From assembly GCA_963815195.1 (NCBI GenBank), contig CAWFGE010000021.1, positions 160,001-224,000 of the forward strand: DNA of 64,000 nucleotides, given 5' to 3'. The translations under genes were made by a program, and so were the position numbers. Shown here in pieces: positions 35,726 to 51,068 of this stretch. The notes under the pieces were generated by a model. The model was not told the DNA's origin. It did no database searches and worked only from the letters and a program-made list of their open reading frames with translations. The DNA comes from an uncultured Planctomycetaceae bacterium. GTDB lineage: Bacteria; Planctomycetota; Planctomycetia; Planctomycetales; Planctomycetaceae. Each line of letters opens with the position of its first letter. Within the stretch, counting starts at the first letter, position 1.

Positions 35726-37146
35726 ATGCCGGGTCCGAATATTTTGTGGATTTGCACCGATCAGCAGCGGTTTGACACGATCGCGGCCCTGGGCAATTCT
35801 TTGATCCGCACGCCGAATGTCGATCGGCTCGTGGCCGAGGGCGTGGCGTTCACCCAGGCCTACGCCCAAAGTCCCGTCTGCACGCCGAGCCGGGCGGCGA
35901 TGCTCACCGGCCGCTATCCCCGCACAACCCGCTGCCGGCAAAACGGGCAGCAGATTCCCTCCGACGAACGCCTGCTTCCGCGGATCCTGGCCGATCACGG
36001 TTACTTTTGCGGACTCGCGGGCAAACTGCACTTGAGTTCCTGCGCAGGCGGCCGCGTGGAGCAGCGGATCGACGATGGCTACCAGGTCTTCCATTGGAGC
36101 CATCACCCCCAGCCCGATTGGCCGGAAAACGCTTACACCCAATGGCTCGCCGAGAAAGGCAAGACCTGGAAAGCGCTTTACACCGGCGAGTCCACGCGGT
36201 TTACCAAGCGAGGCGTTCCCGCGGAGTACCACCAAACCACGTGGTGCGCCGAGAAAGCCTGCGAGTTCATCGAGGACCGGGCGGACGCGGAATCGCCTTG
36301 GTTGTTCAGCGTGAATTTTTACGCGCCGCATCATCCGTTCGATCCGCCGGGCGAGTATCTCGACCGCTATAATCCCGCCGACATGCCGCTGCCCAAATTC
36401 CGCGAAGGCGAACTCGCGAACAAACCCAGGTTTCAACAACTCGACCACGTCTGGCGCACAACACGCCGGGCTATTATCCCACCGGCGAGATGTCGCCCGA
36501 CGAAGCCCGGCAAGTCGTCGCGGCTTATTATGCGATGATCGAGCACATCGATCACGAAGTCGGCCGGATGCTGAAAGCCTTAGACGACACCGGGCAGCGG
36601 GAGAACACGATCGTGATTTTTATGTCCGACCACGGCGAGATGCTGGGCGATCACGGATTGCTTTTGAAGGGGCCGCACTTTTACGATGAGGCCGTCCGCG
36701 TGCCCTTGGTCGTGCGCTGGCCGGGAAAGTTTCGAGAAGGCCTCTTGGCGGAGGGTTTGATCGAACTCGTGGATCTGGCCCCGACGCTGCTCGAGTGCGC
36801 GGAGCTTCCGGCTGAACCCCAGATACAGGGACGGTCATTCCGTTCGATCTTAACCGGCGAAGCCGACCCGTCTCGGTTTCGGGATTATGTGTATAGCGAA
36901 TATCTCAACGCGTGGACGCATCCGGGTGCCTACGCCACGATGCTCCGCACGGCCGAGGAAAAGATCGTTGTGTATCACGGCAGCGAGCCCGGGGAACTTT
37001 ACGACCTGGCGGCCGATCCGGACGAGTTTGACAACCTCTGGGACCGTCCCGATCAGGCGGCGAGAAAAGTTCGGCTCCTGAAAGCCGCCTGCGATCGGAT
37101 CGCATTCACGGCCGACCCCTGCCCCCCGCGATTGGGGCCGTTTTAA
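35726..37146 (+). CDS. Cys-type sulfatase; apparent missing base near 36454
   Basis: PNILWICTDQQR, CTPSRAAMLTG, GKLH, PHHPFDPP, MSDHGEMLGDHG across two frames. Confidence 0.88.
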
Positions 37147-43360: not shown

Positions 43361-43467
43361 TCCTCCCGCTGAGGATGACAAAGCGAAAGGATGGCCGTCC
43401 CTGGCCGAAAACGGCTTCCCTTGCCGTTGAGGGGATCGCATCACAGCGGATTCGAGATGTGTAAATG

Positions 43468-43646
43468 CAAAAAGCCCTCAAGAAAGGAGGGGTTCAAGAC
43501 AACCAACATCACCTTGAGCGATGGGGAACTGATTTGCAGAGTGGGTCAGGCTGCTAATCAGGGGACCTTCCACAGACTGGTTGTTGAACACCAAACCCTT
43601 TCCTGAGGGCTAGGCTGGGTAAAGGAGTGGGTGGCTTTCCCACAAT
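43468..43646 (-). ncRNA. Putative sigma-54-transcribed structured RNA (6S-like rod or sRNA), ~180 nt
   Basis: 15-bp closing stem AGCCCUCAGGAAAGG/CCUUUCUUGAGGGCU followed by U run; inner GUUCAA/UUGAAC and CAACCA/UGGUUG stems; apical UGAUUAGCAG/CUGCAAAUCA; G-U wobbles favour minus strand. Confidence 0.65.
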
Positions 43647-43656
43647 GACATAGGCA

Positions 43657-43672
43657 AGCAGGTCCCATGCCA
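43657..43672 (-). promoter_or_regulatory. Putative sigma-54 (-24/-12) promoter of the structured RNA
   Basis: Minus strand TGGCATGGGACCTGCT, GG-N10-GC; predicts +1 near 43646. Confidence 0.65.
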
Positions 43673-43771
43673 TTAAGGGGATCAATTGAAGATTTACACG
43701 AAACAAACGCCGTAATATCTTTTTTAACAGTCAGTTATGTAAAATAGCTTTGCCAAAAAAATCTTAGGGTT

Positions 43772-43858
43772 CGATGGATTTTCGGCGCCGAAACTTGCTT
43801 TTTCGGCGCCGATTCTGTTTGATGGGAGAGATCGGCGCTCGGCGCCGAATTTTCGTCG
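43772..43858. promoter_or_regulatory. Putative enhancer (UAS) palindromes for the adjacent activator
   Basis: TCGGCGCCGA at 43782, 43803 (21 bp later) and 43839. Confidence 0.55.
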
Positions 43859-43880
43859 CCCCCTTTTGTTGGGTTCATCG

Positions 43881-46800
43881 ATGCTCTTCCATCGAAAATG
43901 GACATTGATCGTCATCGGATCCGCCGTGCTGGTGTATTCGATTATTGTCCTCTGTTTCATCGTCACCACGCCCGATGTCGGCTTGCGGGTTTTGCTTTCG
44001 GAGGCGGACTCTTCTCAACAAGCCCCGGTCCAGGGGATCCGCATTCACGCGACCCCGCATTTGATGGCCAGCGTCCCCAAGGGACAGAAATTGACACCGC
44101 AAGTCGGCGACCGTCTATTGCAGTTGGGCGGTTTGCCCACCCACAGTTTTTTGGATTTCGCCTGGAAGATGGATCGGCTGCGGAATGCGAAACCTAAAGA
44201 TGCTCCTCTGGCGCAGGGAGAAGATTTATGGCGGGCCGTGGAGAAATTTGTGGGCCCCTCCGAGCCTCGTGGAGTATTCGGGCGGGGAACGCTGGATCAG
44301 AGCCGAGTTTTCGCGGCCCGCCTCCGGGGGGAAGCCGGGGCCACCCTTCACCGCCTATCTTCAGGTGCAGTCGCTGCCTTTGAGCGAAGTGTTTTTGAGC
44401 TTTATCTGGTTCGCGCTGCAGCTCGGGTTTTTCATGCTGAGCGCTTTGTTGTGCTGGAACCGGCCGTTTGACCGGGCCGCGCGGGTGCTGTTTGGTTTGG
44501 GGATCGTTGGATTGGGGGCCTTCATCGCGGGGAATCATTGGTGGGTGATGGCTGCGAACCGCTGGCTGATCGTGCCTTGCGCGACGTGCGGGATTCTGCT
44601 GCCGGCGGTCTTGTTGCATTTCTTTTTGGTGTTTCCTCGCCCCAGGCTGTTTCTGCAAACGCACCGCGTGCTCTCGATGTTTGGCGTGTACCTGGTGCCG
44701 ACGCTGGCGGTCGCGGCCACGATGATGGTCGTGTGGCTCACCGGCCAAACACACGATCCCGGGGATCCGGCCGACGTCGCCGAGCTGGTTCCTCTCCTGG
44801 ATGGATTGCGATACGGCATCTACGGCTACTTCTGCGTGGCGGCGGTCTACTTCTTGCTTTCGCTGTTCGTGCTCTGGCAGAGCCTCGGGCAGTCTCAACA
44901 GGCCAAAGAGCGTCAGCAGCTTCGCTGGATTTGGCACGGGGCGACGCTGGCTTCCCTCTTTATCGCCATCACCTTGGTGCTCGCCTTCAAGAACCGCGGG
45001 GACTTTGCCTTGGGCAGCGGACGGGTTCCGATGTTCCTCGCGGCGGTGTCCTTCATCGTCGCGTTTTCCGTCGCGATGGTTCGGCATCAGTTAATGCAGG
45101 TCGATCAGATCATCAGCCGGAATATGCTGTATTACGTCGCGAGCCTGGGGCTCACCGCTGTCATCAGCCTGATGATCGCGCTCAGCATTCTCGTGCCGCA
45201 GTGGTTCAACCTCACCTTGTCGACGCAGCAAGCCCTCACGGTCGCGGCGGTGCTCACCCTTTCCGTGATTTTGCTGCTCTGGCTCCGGGATTTGTTCCAG
45301 CAGATGATCGACCGGCAGTTTTTCCGCGACCGCTACCGCCTCGACAAGGCGCTCGAGCGGATTCAGCATTCCGTGGCAAAGCTCAGCGATCCCGAGGCGA
45401 TCGCCCAACTGTTTCTCGGCTCCTGCCGGGATGTGTTGGGTGTGGAGCGGGGGGCGCTTTATCTTCGCCCGGCCACTGATGAGCCGTTCCGGTTAATGGC
45501 TCTCGCGGGCGACGGCCCGGCTTCGCTGCCTCTGGAGGGGCCGTTTTTGTCCACTCTCAAAATGCGGTCCGTCGACGGCTGGCTTTTGCCGTCCCTGCTT
45601 CCCTTGGATCCGCCGTTTTTGTCGACGCTCAAAGACCAGGGCAGCCTGCAGCGGATCACGCCGGGTTCCAGGAGCGAGCTTTCCGCCGAGCAGGCCTTGC
45701 TCTGGGAACTCGACGTCGATTTGGTGCACGGTTTGGAATCCTCCGAGGGCGTGGCGGGGCTGGTGCTCTTGGGGCCGAAGCGGCACGCGATTTCGTTCAC
45801 GTCCGAAGACCTCACCTTCTTAAACGCCCTGGGGCAGATTGCCAACGTAGCGATGTACAGCGCCCAGGTGGTCGATCAAAACATTTCCCGCTTGAACGAG
45901 GAGTTGGAGCTCAAGCTGGAAAAAATCGCCGAGCAGCAACGGCAGATTCTCGCTCCTTCAAGCCCAGTTGACGCAAATCAGCGATGAGCCCGCGCGGACG
46001 CCCGCGGCCCGGCAAGCGTTTCGTCGGGAGGATTGCAAAGGCAGCAGCCCGGCGATGAAGAAAGTCCTCGACACCGCGCGAAAGGTCGCCGCCAGCGAGA
46101 CGTCGGTGCTGCTCCGGGGGGAAAGCGGGACCGGCAAAGAGGTGATCGCCCAGGTGCTCCACAACAACAGCTCGCGGGCGGGCCAACCGATGATCCGCGT
46201 GCACTGCGCTTCGCTGTCGCCGAGCCTTTTGGAAAGCGAATTGTTCGGCCACGTCAGAGGCGCGTTCACCGGGGCGCACCAGGACCGGGTCGGGCGGTTT
46301 CAAGCCGCGAACGGCGGCACGCTGTTTCTCGACGAAATCGGCGACATTTCCCTGGAAACGCAAATCAAGCTGCTGCGGGTGCTGCAGGAACGGTGCTTCG
46401 AGCCGGTCGGCAGCGTCGAAACGGTGCGCGTCGACGTGCGGCTCATCACGGCGACGCATCAGAATCTCGAAGAACTCATCCGGGCCGGCAGGTTTCGCGA
46501 CGATCTGTTTTACCGGCTGAACGTGATCAGCATGGAACTCCCCCCGCTCCGAGAACGGCGGGAAGACATCTTGGAACTGGCGTTGCACTTTTTGGGGCGG
46601 GCGGCCAAGCGGCTCGGGAAAACGCTGACGCACATCGACGAGGAGGCTTTGGAGCTTTTGGAACGCTATCCGTGGCCGGGCAACATCCGCGAGTTGGAGA
46701 ACATCATCGAGCGGGCGGTCGTCCTGGCCGAGGGCACGGTGCTGACTCCCACGGAATTGCCCGCGGAATTGATCTCCGCCAAAGGCCGGAAACGGCCGGA

Positions 46801-47098
46801 CTCCGCGCCGGCGACGCCCTTCGTGATTCAACAAACCGCCGCCCTGAGACGCGACGATGCGGTCACGAAATCCGCCCGAAGCGATGCGGAGAATCACTCC
46901 GCCCGCGAGGCGGCGTTCGCCAAGTCTTCAACAAAACCGGCGGTTGCAAAAGCCTGCCTGCGAAGCGTCGAGGTCGAACGGGAAGAACTCCTCGCCGCGC
47001 TCGATGAATCGGGCGGCAACAAATCCCAGGCCGCCAAGAGACTCGGCCTGCCCCGCAGCACGTTCTTCAGCAAACTCAAACGCCACGGGATCGCATGA
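43881..47098 (+). CDS. Membrane-anchored sigma-54 activator (TM, PDZ-like, multi-TM, GAF, AAA+, Fis HTH); apparent extra bases near 44256 and 45955
   Basis: Three ORFs join to ~1071 aa; GESGTGKE, ELFGHVRGAFTGA, FLDEIGD, RDDLFYRL, WPGNIRELEN, GNKSQAAKRLGL. Confidence 0.82.
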
Positions 47099-49728: not shown

Positions 49729-50661
49729 TCAGGCCGTAACCTGCGGCGACAAAAGTTTTTTGCGGAAAAAGACGGCTGCCGCGGTCAAACCCGCCAGCAA
49801 CAAGATAATCGACGACGGTTCCGGAACCGTAGGCGTTTCCGGTCCCGCGGAAACTACCAAATTGTCAAAACCAAACCGGTCTTCCAAACTGGTGGCGTTG
49901 CTCGCATCGACACCAATCAAGCGGACTTGCGAAATGGGCATATCACTCGTGAATCCAAAGAAAAGCAGGGAGGCGTTCAATTCGTTCGTCGGCGAGGAGA
50001 TCGGCACAAAGGGATGCGGCATGTTGAACTGCGTCGTCATGCCGTTGGAATCCGTGACCGCGACCATCACCTGTCCGTTGAAGTCACCAAAATCCGTGCC
50101 AAAAAAGCCCAAAGCGTTGACGGGCGTCTGATCAAAGTCGATTAAGAAGTCGAGATTGACCGTATTGGTGTCCAAATACTGCGTTCCGCCAATGGGTATT
50201 TGCACGGGGAACCGGCCGGCGGCATTGTCAACGGGACCCGGATTGGCCAGGGTGATGTCGGACAGAATCGCAGGGTTGGCCGTCAAGCTGGCTGAGATGG
50301 GAAGAGACCCCGAACCCGGAGGCAACCGCTGAAAATCCAAATTGAGCGAGATATTCGAAGGCACACTTTGAGGGCCGACGCCGACGAAGGAGGAGCGATT
50401 CCGAAATTCAAAATCTTCGATACCGAAATCCGCCCCGTTCAACGCGGCGATAAAACTGTCGTATCCGGCTTGAGAATTCGTGTTTGCGGGCAAGCCGACC
50501 CCGGGCATTTGCGGCGTCGCCAACAGGTCGTCGACGATGAGTCCTGAGTTGTCTGCACTGTTAATGCCGGTGGCGTAGAACGTCAGCATCCCCGCCGCGG
50601 CCGTGTGAGTCAAAAAGAGGACGGCGGATACCATTCCCAAAAGTCTTCTCGCAATAAACAT
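49729..50661 (-). CDS. PEP-CTERM sorting domain protein
   Basis: Signal peptide; C-terminal VPEPSS + TM + RKK. Confidence 0.88.
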   Translation of the reverse strand: MFIARRLLGMVSAVLFLTHTAAAGMLTFYATGINSADNSGLIVDDLLATPQMPGVGLPANTNSQAGYDSFIAALNGADFGIEDFEFRNRSSFVGVGPQSVPSNISLNLDFQRLPPGSGSLPISASLTANPAILSDITLANPGPVDNAAGRFPVQIPIGGTQYLDTNTVNLDFLIDFDQTPVNALGFFGTDFGDFNGQVMVAVTDSNGMTTQFNMPHPFVPISSPTNELNASLLFFGFTSDMPISQVRLIGVDASNATSLEDRFGFDNLVVSAGPETPTVPEPSSIILLLAGLTAAAVFFRKKLLSPQVTA

Positions 50662-51068
50662 TTCAGTCGCTTTCAAGCGGACGGCCCATCCCGCTACCAA
50701 AAAAAGAAGGAAAAGTCAGACCCCGCGTTGCGATAAAGCAAACACCATTCCTGACCTTGGCAAATCGCCCTAAAAATCGGCGATTCCGCGCGGTTGGGAG
50801 CGTCTGCGCGGCAGAAACGGCACCCTCGCGCCAACGGTTTCAGCCGGGATGCGCCGATAGTTCATGGAACCCTTTGCCGGACAGAGAGCGATCGCGAGAG
50901 GCGATTCGGTGCGCAGAGAAGCGCGGAAGCAACGGGCAGGCCATTCTTGTGGTTGTTTGTCGATCGTCTGGCCCGCGATGGAACGATTATAACACCGCAC
51001 GCAGCCTGCCAACAGTGAAAATTGATGTGGTTTTGGGAGTTTTGCGAACCGAGCGGTTTTGCGGTTCG

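Follow-up and report, generated by a model that had tools for sequence, protein, structure and literature searches.

Locus organization

We characterized a 64,000-nt window (the whole stretch of DNA analysed here) from the genome of an uncultured Planctomycetaceae bacterium (GCA_963815195.1, contig CAWFGE010000021.1, positions 160,001 to 224,000), focusing on a locus where a predicted small non-coding RNA and a membrane-bound sigma-54 activator are encoded next to each other. The RNA unit lies on the minus strand behind a sigma-54 box and a group of palindromes, and the gene of the sensor-activator runs divergently on the plus strand. All coordinates are window positions. The host genome (8.9 Mb) is labelled G000, while relatives, loci, families and genera carry G, L, f and g labels, respectively. 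Comparison with related genomes indicates that the locus is a real, family-wide sigma-54 RNA module, apparently undescribed.

A conserved rod-shaped RNA

The first-pass annotation of this DNA had proposed a rod of about 180 nt ending in a U run. This was borne out, as positions 43646-43466 fold at -71 kcal/mol (z = -4.6) and none of 200 shuffled sequences reached an energy as low; a marginally longer segment gave a like result. In the predicted fold, a rod bearing a junction and an apical hairpin is closed at its base by a stem that runs out into the U run. Using a script for the tail-stem-terminator unit, we detected the RNA upstream of 91 of the 105 activator orthologs with enough flanking sequence, 80 of these units being distinct, and a covariance model recovered it in 11 of the 14 cases that the script had missed. 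Predicted lengths range from 121 to 272 nt (46 representative homologs). Mean column identity in an alignment of 44 sequences is 44%, with the CCC of the 5' tail and the ACCCA of the apical loop being invariant; the tail motif has a mean unpaired probability of 0.88.

Covariation across activator orthologs, which the same annotation had put forward as a check on the fold, was found throughout the structure. Both sides change in 22 of 23 base pairs, none of 500 shuffles reached the observed score, and slid controls on the 44-sequence alignment yielded about a third of it or less. These counts overstate the significance because the sequences are related and not independent. The result was the same for 95 sequences, which were fitted to the model and hence lean towards the structure. 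Further, the apical and junction helices covary as well as the closing stem.

As a first covariance model (R1) retained no more than 10 pairs, we used in its place a second (R2) with a hand-given structure, whose match in the window spans 43465-43623. One full copy of the RNA was found with R2 in 28 of 36 relatives from the family and none in 24 genomes of other families. Under strict filters, at least 121 of 150 Planctomycetaceae genomes contain a single-copy RNA. When 20 of the 29 strict negatives were rechecked beside the activator, 16 gave full-length matches (E<=0.02), one a loop-only match and three, all from one genus, none. In a class-wide sample, 34 of 36 family genomes were matched and five weak matches (E 0.002-0.046) appeared in 115 others; the two that we inspected were a coding stretch and a terminator-like fragment. 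A second R2 match in G031 was likewise rejected as a terminator following a tRNA.

There is no indication of a small encoded protein: 21 of 46 predicted transcripts lack an AUG-started open reading frame (ORF) altogether, and no such frame recurs at a common position. The downstream gene is not conserved either (convergent in 34 and on the same strand in 19 of 53 loci), and on this variation a riboswitch or leader was rejected. With neither a reading frame nor a downstream gene in common, every sequence criterion marks the element as a non-coding RNA that stands alone.

Some observations were made at individual loci. The same small protein is encoded by the convergent downstream gene in 9 of the 53 loci (L033, L035, L036, L062, L069, L077, L102, L108 and L110); it resembles QueD, a tentative assignment, and is perhaps the ancestral neighbour. 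In the RNA of L146 (G107) the apical-loop motif occurs twice, whereas a 5' tail motif is not recognizable. An apparent 11-nt repeat between tail and loop was discarded, because no more than 4 of 80 loci have it in both places.

Table 1. Predicted features of the RNA and sensor-activator locus (window positions).
Feature	Position	Strand	Remarks
Predicted non-coding RNA	43468..43646	-	~180 nt; +1 deduced from position of -12 box
Variable 5' leader hairpin	43627..43643	-	No conservation; box-to-core distance 9-124 nt across loci
Single-stranded 5' tail motif CCCAGCC	43613..43619	-	CCC invariant, A 98%, G 89% (46 representatives)
Basal closing stem, 5' arm	43596..43611	-	Two-sided changes at 13/14 pairs
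Apical hairpin, loop motif (G)ACCCA	43536..43554	-	A-C invariant, CCA 96-98%; two-sided changes at 5/5 stem pairs
Third C-rich CCCA motif	43522..43526	-	Weaker conservation; 3' side of junction
Closing stem, 3' arm, and U run	43469..43490	-	U run 43469-43473; closing stem is also the predicted intrinsic terminator
Sigma-54 -24/-12 promoter box	43657..43672	-	16 nt
AT-rich spacer	43673..43770	.	Weak matches like integration host factor (IHF) sites, 2 mismatches at best
Three TCGGCGCCGA palindromes, putative activator sites	43782..43848	.	At 43782, 43803, 43839
Sensor-activator gene	43881..47098	+	First transmembrane helix (TM1), PDZ-like extracytoplasmic domain, TM2-10, GAF, coiled coil, AAA+, Fis-type helix-turn-helix (HTH); three ORFs here
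GAFTGA motif of AAA+ domain	46259-46276	+	Intact

A sigma-54 promoter directed at the RNA

The minus-strand -24/-12 box that had been claimed ahead of the RNA is present and is conserved across orthologs. A single box is by itself not beyond chance, since six matches to the pattern were seen in the window with 11.6 expected. Of the 80 distinct loci, 74 have a box scoring at least 10 on the RNA strand at most 150 nt upstream of the RNA core, and none has one on the opposite strand. The RNA calls at these loci were partly anchored on the best box, and the covariance model gives identical coordinates. In 17 of the 80 loci the predicted +1 and the tail motif are no more than about 5 nt apart, and in the remaining ones a variable leader of up to about 115 nt separates the two. 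The box overlaps the RNA core in none of the loci.

The upstream palindromes are also as described, taking the form of three TCGGCGCCGA copies that make up the sole such cluster in the host genome. Words of the TCGGCGCCGA type occur 39 times genome-wide and are clustered at the RNA locus only; further, based on home-made gene calls, this is the only one of 128 intergenic sigma-54-like sites to have more than one palindrome match upstream. Two to five copies are present in 77 of 79 loci at a median of 137 nt from the box. The proposed IHF-like site holds up in part: it is weak in the window, with at least two mismatches, but matches with at most one mismatch occur in 17 of 79 loci (6.3 expected).

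In 28 of 29 RNA-positive genomes the RNA is flanked by the activator. In the exception, G034, the RNA, box and palindromes are found together on a separate contig and the activator has no upstream sites. As the sites stay with the displaced RNA, box and palindromes are assigned to the promoter of the RNA. Joint conservation of box, palindromes and RNA throughout the family, and their joint displacement in one genome, support the earlier suggestion that the RNA is the direct output of a one-component receptor. It is very probable that the HTH domain binds the TCGGCGCCGA palindromes and opens the divergent sigma-54 promoter as its main or only target.

A one-component membrane receptor

The sigma-54 activator was correctly annotated as complete, with Sigma54_activat (PF00158, E 1.5e-69) and HTH_8 (PF02954) domains and an intact GAFTGA motif. 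GAFTGA or a one-residue variant is present in all 27 loci, out of the first 30, whose frame reaches the motif. The claimed fusion with a multi-transmembrane part in one gene is seen in relatives, whose orthologs are single open frames of about 1,010-1,120 codons, and on these grounds the fusion is considered right for the window gene; the gene as assembled in the window does not form one frame. Two single-base indels, placed near 44263 and 45947 by comparison with a same-genus ortholog, break it up into three ORFs. The same-genus ortholog of one further genome is likewise split, at another place, and so are other activator genes of the host genome. Because splits recur across genes, assembly error is the likely cause, and the two activator indels are probably such errors. 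Genes split between frames include a sulfatase-like gene at 35726-37146 (plus strand) and several sigma-54 activator genes on contigs C14, C19 and C23.

Activator orthologs were found in 45 of 61 relatives, one of them a marginal case. Within the family, 147 of 150 genomes have one, compared with 2 of 276 in a sample of the phylum drawn from other families. The three Planctomycetaceae genomes in which no activator was found gave no full-length RNA, and neither did two fragmented genomes that carry the activator.

The protein of about 1,040 residues has ten hydrophobic segments by mean hydropathy, with an extracytoplasmic loop between TM1 and TM2. A structure model built from 20 orthologs (predicted local distance difference test score 78) shows TM1 followed by a beta-rich extracytoplasmic domain, a further nine helices and a GAF domain, the latter being called by fold. 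Look-alike clusters obtained with a language model are labelled PDZ and 7TM (seven-transmembrane) on 10-83% of their members. Pfam gave one weak PDZ match in 20 orthologs, and structural comparison returned no match for the loop. The PrsK model TIGR02916 matches 15 of 20 orthologs with E-values down to 1e-12, at 47 bits compared with a cut-off of 300; the match aligns residues 180-638 with profile positions 10-462 and covers the membrane and GAF part only. Judged by this profile, the sensor is a relative of PrsK. No kinase or receiver domain was found in the sensor-activator and no plasmid-borne relative of the sensor was detected, while a search of protein representatives returned close relatives only among the best 150 matches.

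In the accessible parts of a transposon study of Planctopirus limnophila, rpoN and five enhancer-binding proteins have very low insertion indices (PMC10632474), and sigma-54 appears essential in this organism. The activator is probably dispensable in laboratory culture because the lengths implied for the low-index enhancer-binding proteins (1.4-2.0 kb) do not fit a 3.1-kb gene.

Exchange of the output gene in sister families

In families f4, f6 and f7, an alpha/beta hydrolase gene diverges from the activator in all 11 genomes with a strong activator match (ten full ORFs and one truncated by a contig end). The hydrolase is loosely PcaD-like, scoring under every cut-off. A sigma-54-like box precedes it with a score of at least 10 in 6 of 10 cases and at least 9 in 8 of 10, as counted without a null control. 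At E<=1e-20, the hydrolase was found in 0 of 37 family genomes and in 10 of 24 others. The HTH recognition helix is similar across RNA-bearing and hydrolase-bearing families. In a quick tree of 33 activators, a single branch (Shimodaira-Hasegawa-like approximate likelihood ratio test support 99) parts Planctomycetaceae from the hydrolase-bearing families; labels were assigned by family, and 2 of the 22 family rows have no adjacent RNA. With its root not established, the tree is compatible with a change between hydrolase and RNA in either direction. Finding either a hydrolase gene or an RNA behind the same activator represents a rare natural case of regulon rewiring. In one genome of family f9, the hydrolase (L261, G052:C129:2841-3716) has no adjoining activator.

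A candidate circuit with a protein-titrating RNA

We assign a probability of roughly one half to the full mechanism of a family-wide one-component switch with a protein-titrating small RNA as its output. The PDZ-like loop and helix bundle would read a signal from outside the cell, in all likelihood a peptide or protein terminus, and the AAA+ domain would thereby be switched on. The HTH domain, positioned on the TCGGCGCCGA palindromes some 100-200 nt upstream, would then open the divergent sigma-54 promoter. As covariation shows, the predicted transcript folds into a closed rod; the basal stem doubles as terminator, and CCCA stays unpaired in the 5' tail, in the apical loop and often in 3' bulges. 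These repeated 4-nt words would serve as sites for an RNA-binding protein, which would be sequestered without Hfq, and the signal would be relayed post-transcriptionally, much as CsrB and RsmZ act through GGA motifs.

The sensing step is suggested by analogy with the ComX receptor ComP of Bacillus, whose predicted layout of TM1, an extracellular PDZ-like loop, ten helices and an alpha/beta subdomain ahead of the output (PMC9620489) resembles the one modelled here. ComP differs in ending as a histidine kinase and in having comQ and comX beside it.

Given activator-driven transcription, we lean slightly, by analogy, towards CCCA motifs as sites of an RNA-binding protein that is sequestered without Hfq. 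The invariant CCCA is present in 2-5 copies per RNA, and since its flanks differ from site to site the word common to all sites is only 4 nt long. Outside these sites, CCCC, UCCC and CCCA are the most frequent unpaired 4-mers of the RNA (CCCA 48, compared with 9 for UGGG). Hfq (PF17209) was found in 0 of 60 relatives and the planctomycete class seems to be devoid of it. UGGG is not enriched around start codons of the host genome, where the Shine-Dalgarno sequence is AGGAG. The absence of Hfq, the unenriched UGGG and the lack of a standout target together favour protein binding over base pairing, though not decisively. The only Hfq gene of the host genome (G000:C23:578000-587000, L198) adjoins hflX among genes unlike planctomycete ones and possibly stems from contamination or a chimeric contig.

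SpoVG and CsrA paralogues are partner candidates only. SpoVG is present in 60 of 61 genomes and is equally common in families without the RNA, and CsrA gives 10 matches in the host genome (L112-L121), nine of them above cut-off. One CsrA paralogue (C12:163720) has a sigma-54-like box 130 nt upstream. Proteins with an RRM domain were rejected as partners, as only 25 of 41 family genomes carry one, and KhpA/B gave no above-cut-off match in the host genome.

Several points weigh against this mechanism. The transcript itself is so far a prediction. No RNA dataset was listed for the homologous locus L072. In two of four sequencing runs examined, a lone short contig (171 and 204 nt) covers the RNA with none on the flanking spacer; however, both contigs overrun the predicted RNA ends, are flagged as probably DNA and were selected by the RNA sequence itself. 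The third run covers the upstream region and the fourth has no reads. Fold z-scores are below -2 for 80 of 80 homologs, figures that are inflated because the ends were picked by the closing stem. On the protein side, the activator gene is frameshifted in this assembly, ComP is likened to the sensor by predicted layout and not by sequence homology, and the alignment of helices 2-8 to G protein-coupled receptor folds reaches Z 13-14.5, a range common for helical bundles. Regarding the motif, the 48 CCCA copies in addition to the invariant one of the loop (32 of 46 RNAs, mean unpaired probability 0.65) only modestly exceed the approximately 38 expected by composition, and 14 of 46 RNAs have no extra copy, which is few for a sponge. 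Short C-rich loop motifs are familiar as base-pairing seeds, too. Neither a partner protein nor a target mRNA emerged for the RNA, and genes with CCCA-rich leaders in the host genome show no clear theme. Finally, genus g9 (G011, G114 and G153) keeps the rod and terminator while having lost the CCCA motifs. At its loci (L139, L151 and L152) the palindromes are altered and the activator sits on a long branch; the genus is a useful natural variant for finding the partner of the RNA.

A still more complete scheme joins a ComP-like peptide receptor and the Hfq-independent CCCA sponge into a cell-density or surface-sensing circuit that gates the attached, stalked life cycle, its hydrolase output having been swapped once for the RNA. 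We regard this scheme as speculative and, taken as a whole, unlikely.

Alternative explanations

Short C-rich motifs pair with G-rich mRNA sites in RsaE/RoxS and LhrC. With the same promoter and activator, the RNA could correspondingly be an Hfq-independent base-pairing small RNA (sRNA) whose C-rich tail and loop pair with G-rich sites in mRNAs, a possibility that we hold to be doubtful. The 5' tail provides a conserved single-stranded word of 7 nt and the loop is exposed. Further, according to the accessible portions of the sources, the closest architectural parallels, Qrr (PMC11407668) and Pxr, act or are thought to act on mRNA, and Listeria Rli31 pairs in vitro via a C-rich apical loop (PMC4959528). 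However, the sole word common to all sites has 4 nt and its complement differs from the local Shine-Dalgarno sequence, while neither UGGG nor GGCUGGG is enriched near starts. A duplex scan over all called genes (one genome, home-made calls, no conservation filter) gave no convincing target, the spoVG and RRM leaders contain no conserved complement to the RNA, and the missing Hfq in the 60 relatives speaks against pairing as well. A repetitive extragenic palindromic (REP)-like repeat, whose core GGGTGGCTGGGG is complementary to the 7-nt tail and which has 164 copies in the host genome, was also considered. Expansion to at least 27 copies is seen in 16 of 36 family genomes and in none of 24 from outside the family, and nothing suggests that repeat and RNA depend on each other. 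Since the RNA is normal in genomes with 0-3 copies (G009, G021, G025 and G031), the repeats are not a required target.

We consider it improbable that the RNA, instead of being a sponge of a global regulator, belongs to a dedicated complex (with the receptor itself or a membrane partner, for instance) in which it would act as scaffold or feedback ligand. A single-copy, closed and very stable rod with two invariant motifs at opposite ends would suit such a role, as would the strict co-occurrence with one activator and the joint divergence of RNA motifs, palindromes and long-branch activator in g9. Against this, the length of the rod ranges from about 120 to 180 nt, and three other families use this activator without having the RNA.

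A role confined to the DNA or terminator level, with a conserved element beside an activator that regulates something else and no function in trans, is very unlikely. Such a role would accord with expression being inferred only and with the terminator being the best-conserved helix, but it does not account for covariation of the apical and junction helices, for a promoter aimed solely at the RNA segment, for a downstream gene that is not conserved and is convergent in 34 of the 53 loci, or for the intact relocation of RNA, box and palindromes.

The first-pass annotation had read the RNA as a signal-induced, 6S-like RNA polymerase decoy, which we now consider hardly credible: size and rod shape are similar and three short words are common with 6S in this one sequence (UGUUC, GUCCCCUGA and UUGAACC), but a separate 6S RNA of the host genome scores above the Rfam cut-off (G000:C10:181837-182023 minus, L031), no internal loop of at least 10 nt on both sides, and hence no central bubble, is seen in any of 80 minimum-energy folds, the 3' partner word of the 6S closing stem is present in 0 of 80, and the 5' tail is unpaired where both ends are paired in 6S. 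On the side of 6S, GUCCCCUGA is found in 13 of 80 homologs and CCCUGA in 32 of 80, but the other two words occur in 2 and 3 of 80 and the three are not conserved. A scan against Rfam, including RF00013, gave no credible match in the window region (E<=10) or in 11 homologous loci (E<=1). The signal recognition particle (SRP) RNA was rejected as well, with no RF00169 or RF01854 match at the locus and a word similarity in 17 of 80 homologs that looks like chance. An SRP-like sequence at G000:C5:27946-28042 minus (L201) scores 30 bits, below the Rfam cut-off, and has a non-GNRA apical loop.

Relation to known systems

The comparisons below draw on the accessible parts of the cited sources. In the LuxO-Qrr system of Vibrionaceae, a sigma-54 enhancer-binding protein likewise drives an sRNA, and the Qrr gene lies opposite luxO in 20 of 21 taxa (PMC10162802). 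A sigma-54 promoter with upstream sites beside a divergent enhancer-binding protein, as known for Qrr, is also predicted here. LuxO, however, is a soluble response regulator fed by separate kinases, while sensor and activator are combined here in one membrane protein. Qrr also uses Hfq, which was found in 0 of 60 relatives, and has no sequence or Rfam similarity to the RNA. As for conserved seed pairing of the Qrr type, nothing stood out in duplex and k-mer scans of a single genome. The Nla19-Pxr system of myxobacteria resembles the module in its lineage-wide sRNA with a sigma-54 promoter and an adjoining enhancer-binding protein, gating a life-cycle decision (PMC5568312). It differs in that Pxr lies downstream of a response regulator and forms three stem-loops, whereas the RNA here is divergent and a single closed rod without an Rfam match. 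As far as these descriptions go, the module is wired like LuxO-Qrr and Nla19-Pxr and belongs to neither.

CsrB/RsmZ RNAs share the repeated short single-stranded loop motifs, and CsrA homologues exist in the host genome. CsrA, however, binds GGA, and mostly unpaired GGA is found in only 7 of 46 homologs; with CCCA as the invariant motif, membership in this class was rejected. Rli31 of Listeria, an sRNA shaped as a long hairpin, binds SpoVG in vitro with its C-rich apical loop (PMC4959528). It differs by a separate terminator and by a 14-nt complement in the spoVG leader, not seen here, and shows no sequence match.

No description of planctomycete regulatory sRNAs of this kind was found in the literature searched, mostly outside subscription papers. 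The accessible parts of a cross-phylum sigma-54 survey (PMC12316311) contain no description of such a module, and two genome-wide screens for non-coding RNAs (PMC11109978 and PMC8632094) do not mention planctomycetes in their main texts, supplements aside. The elements that appear to be new are the RNA family, the membrane receptor and activator in one polypeptide that feeds it, the seeming independence from Hfq and the exchange of hydrolase for RNA. Since the RNA is near-universal and single-copy, has two invariant motifs and comes with a precise promoter as well as a candidate activator and binding site, the circuit is directly testable in a cultured member. The pheromone-sensor layout, in one polypeptide with a sigma-54 activator, points to a signal-sensing step in a group whose cell-cell signalling is poorly known. 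A reader of CCCA, if found, could define a new post-transcriptional system, and if the RNA is indeed a sponge it would constitute a new class beside the GGA and CA-rich ones.

Lastly, the PrsK/PrsR pair associated with PEP-CTERM proteins acts via an upstream motif and a sigma-54 box (PMC1569441), similar to the arrangement proposed here. It differs from the module, which has no kinase or receiver, an RNA output instead of PEP-CTERM genes and a palindrome cluster that is unique in the genome. A protein encoded at 49729-50700 (minus strand) of the window has a terminal VPEP motif, a hydrophobic stretch and a basic tail, as in PEP-CTERM proteins, and its gene is not preceded by a palindrome cluster.

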